Shown here piece by piece: positions 9,856-41,753 of a stretch of DNA of 64,000 bases. The notes beneath the pieces were generated by a model. The model was not told where the DNA came from. It saw nothing but the letters and a program-made list of their open reading frames with translations, and searched no databases. Both the position numbers and the translations under genes were made by a program. This DNA is from Candidatus Cryptobacteroides sp. Its GTDB lineage: Bacteria > Bacteroidota > Bacteroidia > Bacteroidales > UBA932. Location of the stretch: assembly GCA_045615565.1 (NCBI GenBank), contig JAZLFC010000009.1, forward strand, positions 9,947-73,946, in the 5' to 3' direction. Positions within the stretch are counted from its first letter, which is position 1. Each line of letters opens with the position of its first letter.

Positions 9856-11328
9856 TCAGCCAAGCTTGCGGTTATAGTAACGCCTCCATTGAAGGAACAG
9901 TAAAAAAGAAACGTAAAAAGCAGCGATAGCGATGACAGGCGCCCATCGCATCGGAATGCCGAGGCAAATATTGTCTACGAAGAAATATGTCACGACCACG
10001 GAAGTCACGAAGCTGGCCGGAATGGCGGTGATGAGGAAATACCACCTTTTGTTTTTTTGAACCAGGTAGATTGACGCAAGCCATAGCGTAAATCCCGCCA
10101 GAGTCTGGTTCGCCAATCCGAAATATCTCCATATAATATTGAAACCCTGTTCGTTGGACACATTGAACCAAAGCAACAGAATAGTAAGCGCAAAAAGAGG
10201 GACAGCAAGGAAGATGCGGTTTTTCTTTGGTTTCTGGTCAACTTTGAAGAAATCGGCAACGATAAGTCTGGCGCTTCTGAATGCAGTGTCTCCACTGGTG
10301 ATAGGAGCAGCTACGACGCCTATAATCGCAAGAATTCCACCTAATATTCCGAGCCAGGAGGTGGCGACCTTGGTTACAACGGTAGGAGCGGCGGCATTGA
10401 GGTCTGATCCAACCTCTGAGGCGCCACCGTCGAAGAAGAAATAGGACGAAACCGCAGCCCAAACAAGAGCAACAAGTCCTTCCGCTATCATTGCACCATA
10501 AAATACGACACGGCCGTTCTTCTCGTTCATCAGGCATCTTGCCATAATGGGGCTCTGGGTAGCGTGAAAACCGCTTATGGCCCCGCATGCTATTGTTATG
10601 AACAGGCAAGGGAATATGCTCTGAGCCGACATTCCCGGCAAACCCGCTTCAGCACCCATATTGGAAAGCCCGTTCCAAATCTCCGGCAGTGACGGCCATT
10701 TTATGATAAGGCAGACCATAAGTGATATGGCCATAAACAGCAGGGATGCAGCAAAGAACGGATAAACTTTTCCTATGATTTTGTCGACCGGCAGAAGCGT
10801 AGCCAGGATATAGTACAGGAAAATGGCTCCCGTCCAGATCATAATGGAAGTCTTTGTACCGTTCCCTGCGATATCGCCCAGGATGATGGCGGGGCTATAC
10901 ACGAATACAGTCCCCACAAGCAGGAGGAGTACCAGCGATATTATCAGCATAGCCGTCCTTGATGATTTGCTCATATACTTGCCGACAAGGTCGGGAAGCG
11001 ACGCTCCGCCGTGACGTATGCTTATCATACCAGTGAAATAATCGTGAACAGCTCCGGCGAAAATAGAGCCGAAAACAATCCAAAGATATGATGCGGGGCC
11101 GAACTTGGCCCCCATAATTGCTCCGAATATAGGTCCTGTCCCTGCAATGTTAAGGAACTGAATCATATAGACTTTCCAACTCGGCATCGGCACAAAGTCA
11201 ACTCCGTCATCCTTGGTGAAAGCCGGCGTAATCCTGGTTGAATCAGGTTTGAACACCCTTTCAACGAATCTGCCGTAAAAAACGTAGCCGATCAGCAAAG
11301 CACATACACACAGAAGGAAAGAAAACAT
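9856..11328 (-). CDS. cstA: Carbon starvation protein A, peptide/pyruvate transporter family
   Basis: QFLNIAGTGPIFG, GAVHDYF, TIACGAISGFHATQSP and PITSGDTAFRSAR motifs; multi-TM. Confidence 0.93.
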   Translation of the reverse strand: MFSFLLCVCALLIGYVFYGRFVERVFKPDSTRITPAFTKDDGVDFVPMPSWKVYMIQFLNIAGTGPIFGAIMGAKFGPASYLWIVFGSIFAGAVHDYFTGMISIRHGGASLPDLVGKYMSKSSRTAMLIISLVLLLLVGTVFVYSPAIILGDIAGNGTKTSIMIWTGAIFLYYILATLLPVDKIIGKVYPFFAASLLFMAISLMVCLIIKWPSLPEIWNGLSNMGAEAGLPGMSAQSIFPCLFITIACGAISGFHATQSPIMARCLMNEKNGRVVFYGAMIAEGLVALVWAAVSSYFFFDGGASEVGSDLNAAAPTVVTKVATSWLGILGGILAIIGVVAAPITSGDTAFRSARLIVADFFKVDQKPKKNRIFLAVPLFALTILLLWFNVSNEQGFNIIWRYFGLANQTLAGFTLWLASIYLVQKNKRWYFLITAIPASFVTSVVVTYFFVDNICLGIPMRWAPVIAIAAFYVSFLLFLQWRRYYNRKLG

Positions 11329-11383: not shown

Positions 11384-11390
11384 CCAAACG

Positions 11391-11463
11391 TGGTGCTGAC
11401 GGGAGTTGAACCAGTGACACATGGATTTTCAGTCCATTGCTCTACCACCTGAGCTACAGCACC
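11391..11463 (-). tRNA. tRNA-Phe (GAA)
   Basis: GGTGCTGTAGCTCAGGTGGTAGAGCAATGGACTGAAAATCCATGTGTCACTGGTTCAACTCCCGTCAGCACCA folds as a cloverleaf with anticodon GAA. The CCA tail is not encoded after the discriminator. Confidence 0.95.
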
Positions 11464-11481: not shown

Positions 11482-11489
11482 CAAATATA
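11482..11489 (-). promoter_or_regulatory. -7 promoter box of tRNA-Phe
   Basis: TATATTTG followed by CAGTCCCG, 18 nt before the tRNA. Confidence 0.7.
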
Positions 11490-11553
11490 GATATTTTTCG
11501 AGAAGACACAAATTTTTATTGACTTAAGAAAGAAAATATTTCTAATTTCGCGT

Positions 11554-12900
11554 ATGCTTACAAAAAGCTGCATACAGGTCATTCTTCCCCTCCGTCTGGC
11601 ATGGGAGCCGTGGTATATCTGCGAAGAGGAAGTGACTGAAGGAGACAGGGTGCTCGTAAAGAATGCCGGCAAAGAATATGTCGCAGTAGTGAGCAGGGTG
11701 GGCTGCACACCGGAACTTGACATACAGAAGATCAAGCCGGTTGAAAGTGTGATAAAAGACCTCGGGAAGATTCTGCCTTCCGAATTAACTTTTTGGAGAT
11801 TCATATCAGAATATTACCTGTGCAGCGTAGGTGAGGTTTACAGATACGCGTATCCCGCAGGAGAAATCGAAGCGGAGGGAAAGAAGTCCCGAAAGAAGAT
11901 TGAAATCAGGTGTTGCGGAGCCTCACAGGGAGCACTGCAGCTGGAGAACACTGACAAACCTCTGTTGATACGGGGCGCAAACAGGAACAGATATTACGAG
12001 CAGTATATTTCCCGAACACTTTCAAACGGACGGGACGTGCTGATCCTCCGGTCCGGGAAAAGCAGAGAATCATTCGCCACGAGGCGCGAATATGCAAAAG
12101 CCGTCCGTTCCGATAAGGCTGTGGTGATTGACGGGAACAAGAGCAACATATTTCTTCCGTTTACCAAACTGGGCCTTATAATCATCGATGACGAGGGCAG
12201 CCCGTCATACAAAAACAACGGCTCCGCACCCAGGTTCAACGGCAGGGACGCAGCGATAATGCTGGCAAAGATTCACGGCGCCGACGTAATCATCGGCTCC
12301 CTGACACCATCGCTGGAGACACTGCTTAACGTCGAGTGCGGAAGATTCAGGATAAAAGAGGCGGACAAGCCGGAACTCTCTGAAATTGAAGTCATAGACA
12401 CCGATGCTGAGTTCCGCAGGAACGGTATGGTCGGAGAGCGCAGCAGAAAGCTCATCGCCGCGGAAGAGGAGATCAGTTCCAAAGGAGGCCGATACCTGGA
12501 GACAAACAGTTGGGAACTGGGCAGGATTATCAATACGCGTCTGGGGAAATATGACCTGATTGCTGTCCTTCACGCCGAGATGCTGAGTTCGGGATCCGAT
12601 TTCAGAGCTGATGAAAAATATCTGAGGACCATCGAGATATTGCGCAGCAGATGCAAGGGCCGCCTGATCATCCAGACGAAGGCATCCGAAGTATGCGGCA
12701 AATCGGTCGGAACCTTGCTTCAAGAGAGGAAGCAGTTCGGATTTCCTCCATATACGAGGCTTGTGGAAATCAGGAAAAGGAATCGGGAAGAACCGGTAAA
12801 ACGCTATTTTCTCCGGAAGGACAGTCACCTTGCCGAAAGGAAAAAAGAAATTGCAGCCTCCTGCCCGAAAGACTGCTTCATAGATGTGGATCCGCTATAA
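11554..12900 (+). CDS. priA: Primosomal protein N' (PriA), shortened and with degenerate helicase motifs
   Basis: 3'-DNA-binding domain (VILPL...FWRFISEYYLCSVGEVY), SNIFLPF..LGLIII, SYK..APRFNGRDAA, GSLTPSLET, DFRADE, LIIQT, ERKQFGFPPY and terminal IDVDP. Walker A, DExH and CxxC motifs are absent. Confidence 0.85.
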   Translation: MLTKSCIQVILPLRLAWEPWYICEEEVTEGDRVLVKNAGKEYVAVVSRVGCTPELDIQKIKPVESVIKDLGKILPSELTFWRFISEYYLCSVGEVYRYAYPAGEIEAEGKKSRKKIEIRCCGASQGALQLENTDKPLLIRGANRNRYYEQYISRTLSNGRDVLILRSGKSRESFATRREYAKAVRSDKAVVIDGNKSNIFLPFTKLGLIIIDDEGSPSYKNNGSAPRFNGRDAAIMLAKIHGADVIIGSLTPSLETLLNVECGRFRIKEADKPELSEIEVIDTDAEFRRNGMVGERSRKLIAAEEEISSKGGRYLETNSWELGRIINTRLGKYDLIAVLHAEMLSSGSDFRADEKYLRTIEILRSRCKGRLIIQTKASEVCGKSVGTLLQERKQFGFPPYTRLVEIRKRNREEPVKRYFLRKDSHLAERKKEIAASCPKDCFIDVDPL

Positions 12901-38547: not shown

Positions 38548-40335
38548 CTAATCCCTGATGTCAAGAAGATAGCGTGACCAGAACAGATGGTCGGAAGCAC
38601 GGTCGTGCTCGTGCTGGGCGCCTCTGTATCCGTGCATCCCGTCCGGGTAGAGCATAAGGTCAAACTGAATGCCCTCATTCTGCAACGCGTCCATCAGCAG
38701 CAGAGTATTCTGATAGTGCACGTTGTCGTCTCCTGTACCGTGCGTGAGTTTCAGACGGCCCGGCCTTCTTCCCTTGACATAGTTGAGCACACCTGCCTCT
38801 GCATAGCCTTCAGGATTGGCCTGGGGCGTGTCCATAAAGCGTTCGGTATAATGGCTGTCATAAAGTGTCCAGTCATATACGCCGCCTCCCGCGACACCGC
38901 AGCAGAAATATTCCGGATACCTGAGGACAAGCATGGAAGTGGTGGTTCCTCCAAAGGAAAAGCCCTCCACACCTATTCTGTCAGCCTTTACGTACGGCTG
39001 CGCCTGCATATATTCGGCCCAGGCGATATAGTCCCCGAGTTCCGGCACCGTCATCCTGCGGAATGCCTCGTCCATACCCCTGCGTCCGTTTTCACCTGAA
39101 GAACGGGGATCGACCACCATATAGATTATGCCGTTATGGAAGCACCAGTCATCCGAAGCATCGCGGTCTTTCCAGCGGTCACGCACATATGGAGTCCCGG
39201 GTCCGCCGTACAGTTGCATCAGCACAGGGTATTTCTTCCCTGGATCAAAACCCTCAGGATACGAAATCAGGCCGTAGAGTTCATATCCGTCATTCTCGAT
39301 TTTCAGAATCTCGGGACGCGGTCTTAACGGCACGTCACCGTTGGCGACGGACACAAGCTCCTCCTCATATCCGTAAAGGTTCCCCCTGATTATGCGGGGG
39401 TTCTGAGAAGCGGTCGAGAGCCTGGCGGTGAAATGTTTTCCGTCCGGATCAAGTTTGATCTGGTCAGCGTAGAAATCAGTATCGGTAAGACAGCTTATCC
39501 TTCCTTTGCGGTCCGCCCGGTAAACCGCCGGATGAAGTTTGGAGTCGCGCTTGGCGCTGAACCACACGTCGCCTTTCTTCTCGTCCACCTTCAAGAGTGA
39601 GACAGCCCAGTTGGGGCCGTCCGTCAGTCTCTTGAATGTCTTTCCGTCATACGACAGGAAATAAATCTGCTCCCATCCGGTTTCAAAACTGCGCGCCATA
39701 TACAGTCCCTTTTCCGTAAAAATCACTTCCTCTATCCAATTCAGCCAGGTCGGATACTCTTCGTGGTAAACCGCGCGCTTTTTGCCGGTACCGGAATCCA
39801 CCGCATAGAGATCGAGGGTATTCTGGCGTCTCGGCTCCCTTGCTATATAGAAATAACGGCTGCCGCTGTCCCAGAAAGGTATTCCGAAATACTGATCTTC
39901 ATTTTCATCGAAATCAGCCCACACAATGCTGTTGCTTTCGACGTCGGCCATTCCTATGCGGACTGACGGATTGTTCTGACCGGCCTTGGGATACCTGGTC
40001 TGCCGCAATCCCCCATTCTGTCCGAAAGGAGAGAATATCGGGAACACCGGCACGTCTGTTTCATCGAATCTGTAGAAACCTATCTTGCGCGAATCGGGAC
40101 TCCACCAGAAAGCCCGGTAATTTGATGCACGGCCCAGAATCTCCTCATAGTAAACCCAAGAAGCATAACCGTTGAGCACCGTCCCGGAACCGTCCGTAGT
40201 GATTCTTGTCTGAGTGCCGTCAGCAACCTTCTGCACCCAGAGGTCATTGTCCCTTGTAAATGCAATCATCGTGGAATCCGGTGAATAGGTCGGATTTACC
40301 ATTGAAAGCGTTACCGCCAGAATAAAGCCAATCAT
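38548..40335 (-). CDS. S9B dipeptidyl peptidase IV family
   Basis: VYYEEI, FWWSPDS, YPKAG, YGGPG, GFSFGG nucleophile, DDNVH and HG. Short N-terminus. Confidence 0.9.
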   Translation of the reverse strand: MIGFILAVTLSMVNPTYSPDSTMIAFTRDNDLWVQKVADGTQTRITTDGSGTVLNGYASWVYYEEILGRASNYRAFWWSPDSRKIGFYRFDETDVPVFPIFSPFGQNGGLRQTRYPKAGQNNPSVRIGMADVESNSIVWADFDENEDQYFGIPFWDSGSRYFYIAREPRRQNTLDLYAVDSGTGKKRAVYHEEYPTWLNWIEEVIFTEKGLYMARSFETGWEQIYFLSYDGKTFKRLTDGPNWAVSLLKVDEKKGDVWFSAKRDSKLHPAVYRADRKGRISCLTDTDFYADQIKLDPDGKHFTARLSTASQNPRIIRGNLYGYEEELVSVANGDVPLRPRPEILKIENDGYELYGLISYPEGFDPGKKYPVLMQLYGGPGTPYVRDRWKDRDASDDWCFHNGIIYMVVDPRSSGENGRRGMDEAFRRMTVPELGDYIAWAEYMQAQPYVKADRIGVEGFSFGGTTTSMLVLRYPEYFCCGVAGGGVYDWTLYDSHYTERFMDTPQANPEGYAEAGVLNYVKGRRPGRLKLTHGTGDDNVHYQNTLLLMDALQNEGIQFDLMLYPDGMHGYRGAQHEHDRASDHLFWSRYLLDIRD

Positions 40336-41753
40336 TTGAAAAACCTGTCGTTAAAATTAACCAGATATACTTTTTCGACCGCCCTTGTTACAGCCGTATA
40401 CAACCATTTCAAATCATCTTCTGTCTGTTCATCCTGCCAGAAAGGACAATCTATGAACACGCAGCGCCACTGTCCGCCCTGGGATTTATGGCAGGTGACG
40501 GCATCCGCATATTTCAACTGCAGGGCATTGTAGTACTTGTCCTCACGCACGGCGTCATATCTCTTTTTCTTACCGGAAATATCCGAATAATCCTCAGAAA
40601 CGCCCTGATACAGCGCATTCTGCTGCTCATAAGTCAATGAAGCCGATTCAGACTCGAGTGTATCCAGACATACTTTCGCAGTGATTTCCTGATTGTCATA
40701 ATCGGGGAATGACAGCACCGCCTCAGCGAAATGCAGACCGTACCTTTCCTCGTACTTCCCTATCCTGACAAGCGTGGCTATATCACCGTTTGCGATATAC
40801 TCCATTCCCTTCACATCTTCGATAAACTGATAGCAATTCTTCACTATCATAAGTTTGTCTCCGCGTACCAGCTTTTCCTCCTTGAACTGAATCATAGAGC
40901 GGATACCGAGATTGTACCTGATGGCCCTCCTGTTTGAACGGCAGAGCACAATGGTATCATCTTCGCCGTATTTTTCATAAGCGTCAGACAGCTTTTCAAT
41001 CAGTTCCACTCCGCCTATCCTTTCAATGTCCGTAAACCCTTTCACTTCCAGGCTGACGCGACAGCCGGAATGGCGGGTAATTTCTTCGCGCAGGAGTGTC
41101 GCGTTATGAAGTATTCCCGATTCGGATGCCTGACGGACAACAGTAGTAAGTTCGGAATACCTTACTCCTCCCACACTGTCCATGAAGTCTTTCGACAGCG
41201 CCGGGCTTTCATCAAGTCCGACGGGTGGAAGCTGTGCGGCATCACCGATCATTATCAGCCGGCAGTCGACCCCGTTCCTTACAAAGCTGACCAGATCATC
41301 AAGAAGGTTTCCGGTGCCGAACAATGAAGATGACTGCTGCCGGTCCGTTTCAGTGCCTATCAGAGACACCTCATCCACCACGAAAAGGGTGCTTTTTGAT
41401 TTATTGGGAATCAACGAGAACTGCCCGAATCCGTCAGACCCCACCGATTTCTGCTTATAGATATGCTTGTGAATAGTATATGCAGGTTTATTCGCAATAC
41501 TGCTCAGAACCTTCGCAGACCTTCCGGTGGGAGCAAGAAGGACTGAATGTACTTTCATCCTCTTCATTGACTCTATGACCGCCGCTATGGCAGTGGTCTT
41601 CCCGGTACCCGCATAGCCGTTGACCACCAGGATATCGGAATCATCGGATGTAATGAAAGACGCTATGTCACGGAACAATGCATCCTGACACGCAGTAGGC
41701 TCATACCCGAAAGATTTCAGGAAATCCGCATATAGGAACTCTGTCCTGCCCAT
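40332..41753 (-). CDS. RecD-like superfamily 1 helicase/ATPase
   Basis: GYAGTGKT, LAPTGRSA, VDEVS, GDAAQLPPV, VVRQ and CHKSQGGQW...WLYTAVTRA. Confidence 0.88.
   Translation of the reverse strand: MGRTEFLYADFLKSFGYEPTACQDALFRDIASFITSDDSDILVVNGYAGTGKTTAIAAVIESMKRMKVHSVLLAPTGRSAKVLSSIANKPAYTIHKHIYKQKSVGSDGFGQFSLIPNKSKSTLFVVDEVSLIGTETDRQQSSSLFGTGNLLDDLVSFVRNGVDCRLIMIGDAAQLPPVGLDESPALSKDFMDSVGGVRYSELTTVVRQASESGILHNATLLREEITRHSGCRVSLEVKGFTDIERIGGVELIEKLSDAYEKYGEDDTIVLCRSNRRAIRYNLGIRSMIQFKEEKLVRGDKLMIVKNCYQFIEDVKGMEYIANGDIATLVRIGKYEERYGLHFAEAVLSFPDYDNQEITAKVCLDTLESESASLTYEQQNALYQGVSEDYSDISGKKKRYDAVREDKYYNALQLKYADAVTCHKSQGGQWRCVFIDCPFWQDEQTEDDLKWLYTAVTRAVEKVYLVNFNDRFFK

Follow-up and report, generated by a model that had tools for sequence, protein, structure and literature searches.

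A 448-residue PriA that has lost its Walker A motif and zinc module belongs to a degenerate clade within one Bacteroidales genus

How much of PriA can a bacterium discard and still restart its replication forks? Among restart proteins PriA alone is, to our knowledge, conserved from phylum to phylum in bacteria, and the question is raised by one gene in a stretch of 64,000 nucleotides (the window in the following) which comprises positions 9,947 to 73,946 of the forward strand of contig JAZLFC010000009.1 (assembly GCA_045615565.1), deposited as Candidatus Cryptobacteroides sp. This gene, for which we use the denomination mini-priA, encodes a PriA of only 448 amino acids. Mini-PriA stands at the near-minimal end of a single clade of PriAs that are inherited vertically, are ATPase-dead as judged from their motifs and are devoid of the cysteine-rich region (CRR). 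It is the only PriA of its organism and probably an ATP-independent scaffold or adaptor for fork recognition, i.e. a pseudohelicase. We lean, if only somewhat, towards the wider proposition that the whole clade runs restart with a PriA of 448-660 residues that has neither motor nor zinc module and, at the extreme, no domain at the winged-helix (WH) position.

Mini-PriA is a PriA by descent and by fold although it fails on catalytic residues, on zinc ligands and on equivalog scores. The open reading frame (ORF) begins with ATG and is intact in the ORF listing of the window. Among Pfam domains its product is matched solely by PriA_3primeBD, the 3' DNA-binding domain (3'BD), at residues 9-101 with 51.7 bits (cut-off 22.7). 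Matches to the PriA equivalogs of NCBIfam are significant (1e-36 to 1e-28), with scores far under the respective cut-offs (98.6 bits versus 230.35 for TIGR00595, 125.9 versus 813 for NF004066). Compared as a single sequence with the PDB, mini-PriA aligns to the PriAs of Klebsiella pneumoniae and Escherichia coli in the block of motif II and the aromatic-rich loop, and its family profile aligns to chain positions 21-438 and 547-664 of the K. pneumoniae enzyme, with the CRR and the first half of lobe 2 skipped and a large gap at the WH position. An AlphaFold2 model built on an alignment of 69 sequences reaches a mean predicted local distance difference test score (pLDDT) of 92 and a predicted template modelling score (pTM) of 0.90, and residues 125-131 of the linker are its sole low-confidence or disordered stretch. 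In a Foldseek search of the PDB the nine best matches to this model are all PriA, with TM-scores over the query (TMq) of 0.70-0.78; the top match is the engineered winged-helix-deletion PriA of E. coli (6dcr, TMq 0.78), and 4nl4 reaches 0.74. With canonical PriA (E. coli, K. pneumoniae; PDB 4NL4, 6DGD, 8FAK; TIGR00595) it has in common ancestry, a fold at TM 0.74-0.78, the 3'BD, the aromatic-rich loop, the core of lobe 1, the DFRADE and ER..PPY motifs and the DVDP C-terminus, besides probable counterparts, by alignment, of the SSB-pocket residues Y86, K370 and R697. In contrast with canonical PriA, mini-PriA has no P-loop, no DExH histidine, no motifs IV-VI, no zinc-binding CRR and no WH-position domain, and its C-terminal domain (CTD) is shortened (Table 1).

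Table 1. Features of mini-PriA, its gene and nearby elements in window coordinates
Feature	Coordinates (strand)	Residues	Remarks
mini-priA	11554..12900 (+)		448 codons + stop; sole PriA homologue of the genome
3' DNA-binding domain	11566..11883 (+)	~5-110	length as in canonical relatives; Pfam PF17764 8e-14
3'BD helix with W81/F83/Y87/Y88			matches the K. pneumoniae PriA helix with SSB-Ct pocket residues W82/Y86
Short linker	11884..11958 (+)	111-135	replaces a ~90-aa insert at the winged-helix position of canonical relatives
Helicase lobe 1 remnant	11959..12369 (+)	136-272	motif Ia-Ib helix-strand unit gone, 22 residues shorter than canonical
Degenerate P-loop PLLIRGANRNRYY	11959..11997 (+)	136-148	3 residues shorter than GVTGSGKTEIY; no GK[TS]
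Motif II remnant IDDEG	12184..12198 (+)	211-215	acidic residues retained, DExH histidine gone
Aromatic-rich loop region SYKNNGSAPRFNGRD	12205..12249 (+)	218-232	SYK 218-220, PRFNGRD 226-232; conservation as in canonical PriA
Motif III-like GSLTPS	12295..12312 (+)	248-253
Helicase lobe 2 remnant	12370..12747 (+)	273-398	CRR zinc module, motifs IV-V and motif VI GRxGR deleted; PriA-specific IIQT (372-375) and ER..FGFPPY (ERKQFGFPPY, 391-400) retained
DFRADE in lobe 2 remnant	12598-12615 (+)	349-354	PriA-specific, retained
Shortened C-terminal domain	12748..12897 (+)	399-448	strand-strand-helix-strand; conserved K430, terminal DVDP (444-447)
Overlap with mtnN-like gene	12895-12900		6 bases, convergent 3' ends
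tRNA-Phe (GAA)	11390-11463 (-)		between cstA and mini-priA
Promoter motif TTTG-N-TAnnTTTG	11482-11512 (-)		just upstream of tRNA-Phe
RecD2-like helicase gene	40332-41753 (-)		intact; 143 bits, cut-off 500

The reduction is modular. It was followed in an alignment of 19 PriAs encoded by congeneric genomes and by counting the residues between conserved anchors in 114 PriAs (Table 2). Canonical congeners read GVTGSGKTEIY, DEEH and QFRGRxGRRG and have four CxxC pairs, whereas mini-PriA has G-ANRNRYY, DDEG and LRSRC-KGR at these sites and no Cys pair; a motif scan found neither CxxC nor GxGK[ST] anywhere in its 448 residues. In the clade of its degenerate relatives the position of the DExH histidine is occupied by Q in 32 of 48 members. 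The Pfam CRR model PF18319 has zero matches in the genome of mini-PriA and matches 76 of 151 genomes of the genus. The observation exceeds chance by far: mini-PriA matches PriA with high significance, and 48 related proteins show these losses again. Such a protein should be unable to bind or hydrolyse ATP in the manner of superfamily 2 (SF2) helicases, so that DNA-dependent ATPase and 3'-5' helicase activity are predicted from the motif losses to be absent, and it lacks both the beta-hairpin wedge and the pore-forming CRR of E. coli PriA (PMC10175261). A relocated cryptic P-loop was considered and rejected because the two GKS tripeptides of mini-PriA are not conserved among its orthologues. 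The preliminary description, written from the window, had listed the intact ORF with its PriA motifs, each of which lies at the residue given there; its claim that Walker A, motif Ia, the DExH box and the CxxC pairs are lost is borne out by genus alignment, motif scan and the blank PF18319 search, and its view of a PriA derivative unable to act as canonical ATPase or helicase agrees with the motif losses and the profile alignment. The predicted structure that it had called for places mini-PriA in the PriA fold. As a separate observation, the insert that occupies the WH position of E. coli PriA is a charged, heptad-like helical sequence in canonical congeners (L018, L020, L023, L026; e.g. EEREEKTRAKIAEKISRLKERIERKAAS) and may form a helical hairpin there rather than a winged helix.

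Table 2. Residues between conserved anchors in canonical PriAs, the degenerate clade and mini-PriA
Segment	Canonical median	Degenerate clade	Mini-PriA
3'BD	98.5	95	95
Insert from 3'BD to lobe 1 (WH position in E. coli)	91	32-122	34
P-loop	26	23 in 43/48	23
Motif Ia-Ib unit	55	55 in many, 33-35 in the subclade of mini-PriA	33
Motif II/aromatic-rich loop/motif III block	40	39-40, essentially indel-free	40
Lobe 2 N-half + CRR	177	~85	66
Motif VI	29	23-24 in most	24
CTD	93	45-100	45

Mini-PriA was at first regarded as a single oddity, a view that has to be given up: it belongs to a large and monophyletic clade, inherited vertically, in which the deletions form a graded series. Neither GxGK[TS] nor CxxC is present in 119 of the 120 best database homologues (414-730 aa), and the loci from named genomes fall into two clean classes which possess either a P-loop together with 3-4 Cys pairs or neither of them. 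Putative intermediates with CRR and without Walker A were dismissed, as their GVTSSGKT is a valid P-loop. A maximum-likelihood tree of the 114 PriAs unites all 48 degenerate proteins in one clade with a single state change (Shimodaira-Hasegawa-like approximate likelihood ratio test, SH-aLRT, 88) that nests among canonical PriAs of the same group. Mini-PriA itself belongs to a five-member subclade of 448-aa proteins (support 100) beside forms of 443-470 aa. The genomes with degenerate PriA constitute a single rooted clade also in the trees of Mfd (1063 columns, SH-aLRT 95) and RecG (697 columns, 97), and this means that the loss occurred once and was inherited vertically. The genus concerned is probably Ca. 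Cryptobacteroides, uncultured Bacteroidales of rumen and gut, and other species of it keep canonical PriA. An even draw of 151 of its genomes, 76 of them rated high-quality, contains the 3'BD in 131 and the CRR in 76, with one 3'BD each except where the gene is split across contigs; among the high-quality genomes the respective numbers are 74 and 45. As 25 of the 29 high-quality genomes with 3'BD and without CRR have open frames of at most 660 aa, roughly 35-40% of the sampled species of the genus carry the reduced form as their only PriA. Genome size follows a trend, about 2.0 Mb with reduced versus about 2.5 Mb with canonical PriA, in a hand tally of rounded sizes from kin that are not independent. 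Apart from the degenerate clade, a small clade of otherwise canonical PriAs (L019 from G020, L067, L105, L108) shows three CxxC pairs only; L019 has CIRPGC at the fourth Cys site and DEEQ instead of DEEH, which may represent early erosion in a second lineage. Six PriAs (L050, L052, L072, L083, L104, L111) nest in the Bacteroidales group despite implausible organism labels (Treponemataceae, Anaerovoracaceae, Acetatifactor, Acutalibacteraceae, Rokubacteria), which suggests that these records of metagenome-assembled genomes are mislabelled or contaminated bins.

Mini-PriA derives from the genus's own canonical priA, and the surviving forms allow an order of losses to be proposed. A deletion of about 92 residues that removes the CRR and the N-terminal half of lobe 2 is common to all 48 degenerate proteins. 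Early-branching members retain fossils of the P-loop such as GVSGSGKK (L080), GGIGAER (L058) and GISAQKK (L055); the fossil of L015, G-DMAGRR, corresponds to the K-to-R state found in Deinococcus, and in this protein the motif VI region is of full length and without GRxGR. According to the simplest reading of these sequences the motor was inactivated first, when the CRR was deleted together with motifs IV-V in the N-half of lobe 2; P-loop and motif VI would have decayed next and separately in sublineages, and stepwise trimming of the WH-position insert, the motif Ia-Ib unit and half of the CTD would have come later. The endpoint is a compact and confidently folded core of 448 residues on which purifying selection still acts.

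It is known already that a PriA can do without its motor, and the closest precedent is the pseudohelicase of Deinococcus. D. radiodurans PriA binds forks and exhibits neither ATPase nor helicase activity (Lopper, Boone & Morrow 2015, PMC4504706), and the PriAs of Deinococcus-Thermus have lost the catalytic Walker A/B residues and retained full length and CRR (PMC4504706). Mini-PriA resembles them in the absence of these catalytic residues, in being the organism's only PriA and in a host that uses DciA rather than DnaC/DnaI; DciA was found present in the control genomes of D. radiodurans and Thermus thermophilus. It differs from Deinococcus PriA, which has both RecA-like lobes, the CRR and ~700-840 aa, by its 448 aa and the deletion of parts that are kept there, namely the CRR, motifs Ia, IV, V and VI, the WH-position insert and half of the CTD. 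Moreover its origin is independent of Deinococcus-Thermus, since the degenerate clade arises among canonical PriAs of Bacteroidales, within one genus, and is so recent that canonical sisters and intermediates survive. In E. coli the priA300 allele (K230R) supports restart and the motor is dispensable for the PriA-PriB pathway (PMC5778457). Mini-PriA would be comparable in serving restart without ATPase or helicase activity of PriA, and it resembles the WH-deletion PriA (6DCR), its best structural match; however, priA300 and the WH-deletion PriA are laboratory constructs with a single defect each and with the CRR kept, whereas mini-PriA combines all these defects. The E. coli variants also act via PriB and DnaT, neither of which is known from Bacteroidales. 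In the literature that was searched, no PriA that is truncated and devoid of the CRR has been described from Bacteroidota. Of interest are the extent of the reduction, its frequency in an abundant genus of gut and rumen and the survival of canonical and intermediate relatives.

What has been kept is as informative as what has been lost. Residue conservation shows that the PriA signatures unrelated to ATPase function are retained as strongly in the degenerate clade as in canonical relatives. They include PLxLxWEPWY and GxRVxV of the 3'BD, GSxxPSLE, DFRADE, ERxxFxxPPYTR and the terminal DVDP; W81, Y87, Y88, K220, R231, R351, E354 and R392 are invariant in the clade, and R227 and D232 of the aromatic-rich loop nearly so. 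Residue 264 is basic (K/R) in 46 and K430 is present in 47 of the 48 degenerate proteins. In K. pneumoniae PriA the pocket for the SSB tail is formed by W82, Y86, K370, R697 and Q701 (PMC5531588); by alignment Y87, K/R264 and K430, conserved in both groups, are probable equivalents of pocket residues, and F83, at the likely position of W82, is fixed in 44 of the 48 degenerate proteins and variable in canonical ones. The host genome encodes DnaB, DciA and an SSB of 162 aa (contig C22) that ends with SDDLPF. A second SSB-family ORF of 136 aa (G000:C3:69124-69423, L123) has no acidic tail of the DDLPF type.

The structure of E. coli PriA on a fork assigns the binding of the leading arm and the nascent 3' end to 3'BD and CTD, and that of junction and parental duplex to lobe 1, aromatic-rich loop and 3'BD, while WH contacts the distal duplex and the CRR is unwinding wedge, part of the ssDNA pore and dock for PriB (PMC10175261; for the aromatic-rich loop see also PMC5175346). 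The parts retained in mini-PriA would thus be those that contact the fork in E. coli PriA without use of ATP. The 3'BD should attach to the leading arm as well as to the nascent 3' end, and lobe 1 with its aromatic-rich loop should wedge at the junction; most likely mini-PriA would bind abandoned forks and D-loops on SSB-coated DNA and could then nucleate the reloading of DnaB with DciA on a lagging-strand template that is already single-stranded. It would be unable to unwind a duplex lagging arm or to enclose ssDNA in a pore framed by the CRR, and these steps would have to be dispensable or performed by pre-existing enzymes, for instance RecG or RecQ-, UvrD- or RecD2-like helicases. Restart in this lineage thus probably needs PriA only as a scaffold that recognises forks, and we infer that the pathway of the host may be rewired in this sense. 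To the fold, losses, sole-copy status, selection and clade history seen in mini-PriA, the work on E. coli and Deinococcus adds by analogy the expectation of DNA binding, SSB binding and helicase loading.

All this presupposes a genuine and functional gene. The host genome of 1.43 Mb is a draft of 47 contigs, so an error of assembly or binning that left a canonical priA among unassembled sequence could be envisaged, yet the genome is estimated to be 98% complete and searches with TIGR00595 and PF17764 found one PriA 3'BD in it and no second full-length priA, for which the preliminary description had wished to look. The other weak matches to PriA models were examined as candidates for a second priA and turned out to be intact Mfd, UvrB and RecG. 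Against such an error stand also four assemblies made independently from other samples (two from Logan, two from ENA) that hold orthologues of exactly 448 aa with 85, 70, 63 and 61% identity, all in the neighbourhood cstA, priA, convergent mtnN-like nucleosidase, L31, namZ and a phosphoglucosamine-mutase-like gene, and at least 25 high-quality genomes of the genus that have a short-frame 3'BD gene, one 3'BD each and no CRR anywhere; we consider this explanation scarcely credible. That many catalytic motifs and whole modules are gone would fit a decaying relic without function. However, the ratio of non-synonymous to synonymous substitutions (dN/dS) is 0.092 in comparison with the closest orthologue (dS 0.91, unsaturated) and 0.09-0.17 for other pairs, with 0.03-0.12 for the adjoining genes, and by region it amounts to 0.03-0.2 throughout mini-PriA, the dead P-loop segment included. 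The five 448-aa orthologues (61-85% identity) share 206 invariant residues out of 448 and are free of indels, stops and frameshifts, the model is confidently folded, and the reduced form persists through a radiation of at least 48 lineages, all of which renders a relic very improbable. Mini-priA is neither artefact nor pseudogene and is maintained by purifying selection. In this respect the earlier proposals of a scaffold-only PriA under selection and of clean in-frame module losses by selection rather than decay have stood up well, as genus alignment, anchor-segment lengths, dN/dS and the missing indels support them.

More serious is the question of which function is being selected. Several points speak against a fork-recognition scaffold for restart: the mode of cooperation of PriA with DciA and DnaB is not established in any organism (PMC9825169), so that the DnaB loading step is an extrapolation; the SSB-pocket equivalences are drawn from an alignment in which the counterpart of W82 is ambiguous; the CRR of E. 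coli PriA contributes to the ssDNA pore and normal complexes do not form without it, and by analogy its loss might abolish more than unwinding; and the PriA core evolves about 30% faster relative to Mfd (divergence ratio of core columns 2.0 in the degenerate clade, 1.55 among canonical congeners), which fits partial relaxation and also a change of function. The last point, as well as losses of ATPase, CRR, WH-position insert and half of the CTD far more radical than those of the Deinococcus pseudohelicase and the fixation of the aromatic F83 in the clade, would be compatible with a neofunctionalised PriA derivative that binds branched DNA for fork protection, recombination control or regulation, while restart proceeds independently of PriA. 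Yet the signatures specific for PriA outside the ATPase (3'BD, aromatic-rich loop, DFRADE, ER..PPY, DVDP) are invariant, the genome contains no other PriA or known restart protein, and PriA-independent restart was reported in suppressor mutants only (PMC5778457). The rise in rate is a modest relaxation and not a release from constraint, and we regard neofunctionalisation as unlikely, though it deserves attention. Quite improbable in our opinion is an obligate two-part system, in which mini-PriA finds the fork and a dedicated helicase supplies the motor. The RecD2-like SF1B helicase named as one candidate for this partner by the preliminary description is indeed intact and encoded in the same window (Table 1), and RecG, UvrD-type and RecQ-like helicases are present in the genome as well. 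But 40 of 41 relatives across the order possess the RecD2-like gene (32-75% identity), no matter which type of PriA they have, hence it is an order-wide conserved gene with no specific tie to PriA reduction, and mini-priA is unlinked to helicase genes. A Helicase_C census of 14 genomes revealed the same five core SF2 proteins everywhere (RecQ-like, UvrB, DEAD-box, Mfd, RecG), joined by PriA in canonical genomes, and no further SF2 helicase in the degenerate clade, SF1 families lying outside this comparison. Should the clearing of a duplex lagging arm require a helicase, a pre-existing enzyme must be doing it. The reading that we prefer is still that of an ATP-independent scaffold for fork recognition.

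If the wider proposition on the whole clade is true, the minimal unit for the universal task of PriA, the marking of abandoned forks for DnaB/DciA reloading, would consist of the 3'BD, lobe 1 including the aromatic-rich loop, half of lobe 2 and a mini-CTD, and the CRR would matter for unwinding and PriB docking only. The graded series of deletions, together with the canonical sisters, would then amount to a natural domain dissection of PriA in bacteria of the DciA type, and the parts kept under purifying selection after motor and zinc module had been discarded would reveal which of them carry the indispensable function. As canonical, intermediate and minimal forms occur in one genus, the order of loss is readable and it can be asked what else changed at the same node. 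Beside the single PriA pseudohelicase studied experimentally the clade offers an independent instance from an abundant group of the animal gut, and mini-PriA, predicted to fold well, is a small protein for biochemical and structural work. It bears on restart outside the PriB/DnaT/DnaC system of E. coli, especially with the widespread loader DciA.

In the neighbourhood, mini-priA sits between the tRNA-Phe gene and the convergent mtnN-like gene, which is on the opposite strand and whose 3' end overlaps that of mini-priA in the four orthologous loci likewise. The order cstA/tRNA-Phe, priA, mtnN, L31, namZ is constant in the 448-aa group and partial in other degenerate loci; canonical priA neighbourhoods differ among themselves. 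The promoter motif near tRNA-Phe is of the Bacteroidetes type, of which the window contains six against 0.87 expected by chance. Two further observations concern RecG. The host protein (G000:C21:23843-26050, L004/L154) has an extra segment of ~40 aa at residues ~410-451 compared with most congeners, the matches of which are split at residues 410 and 451, and only G016 matches across. The RecG frame of G005 (L144/L164, G005:C125) contains one in-frame TGA, for which sequencing error, pseudogene or recoding are possible.

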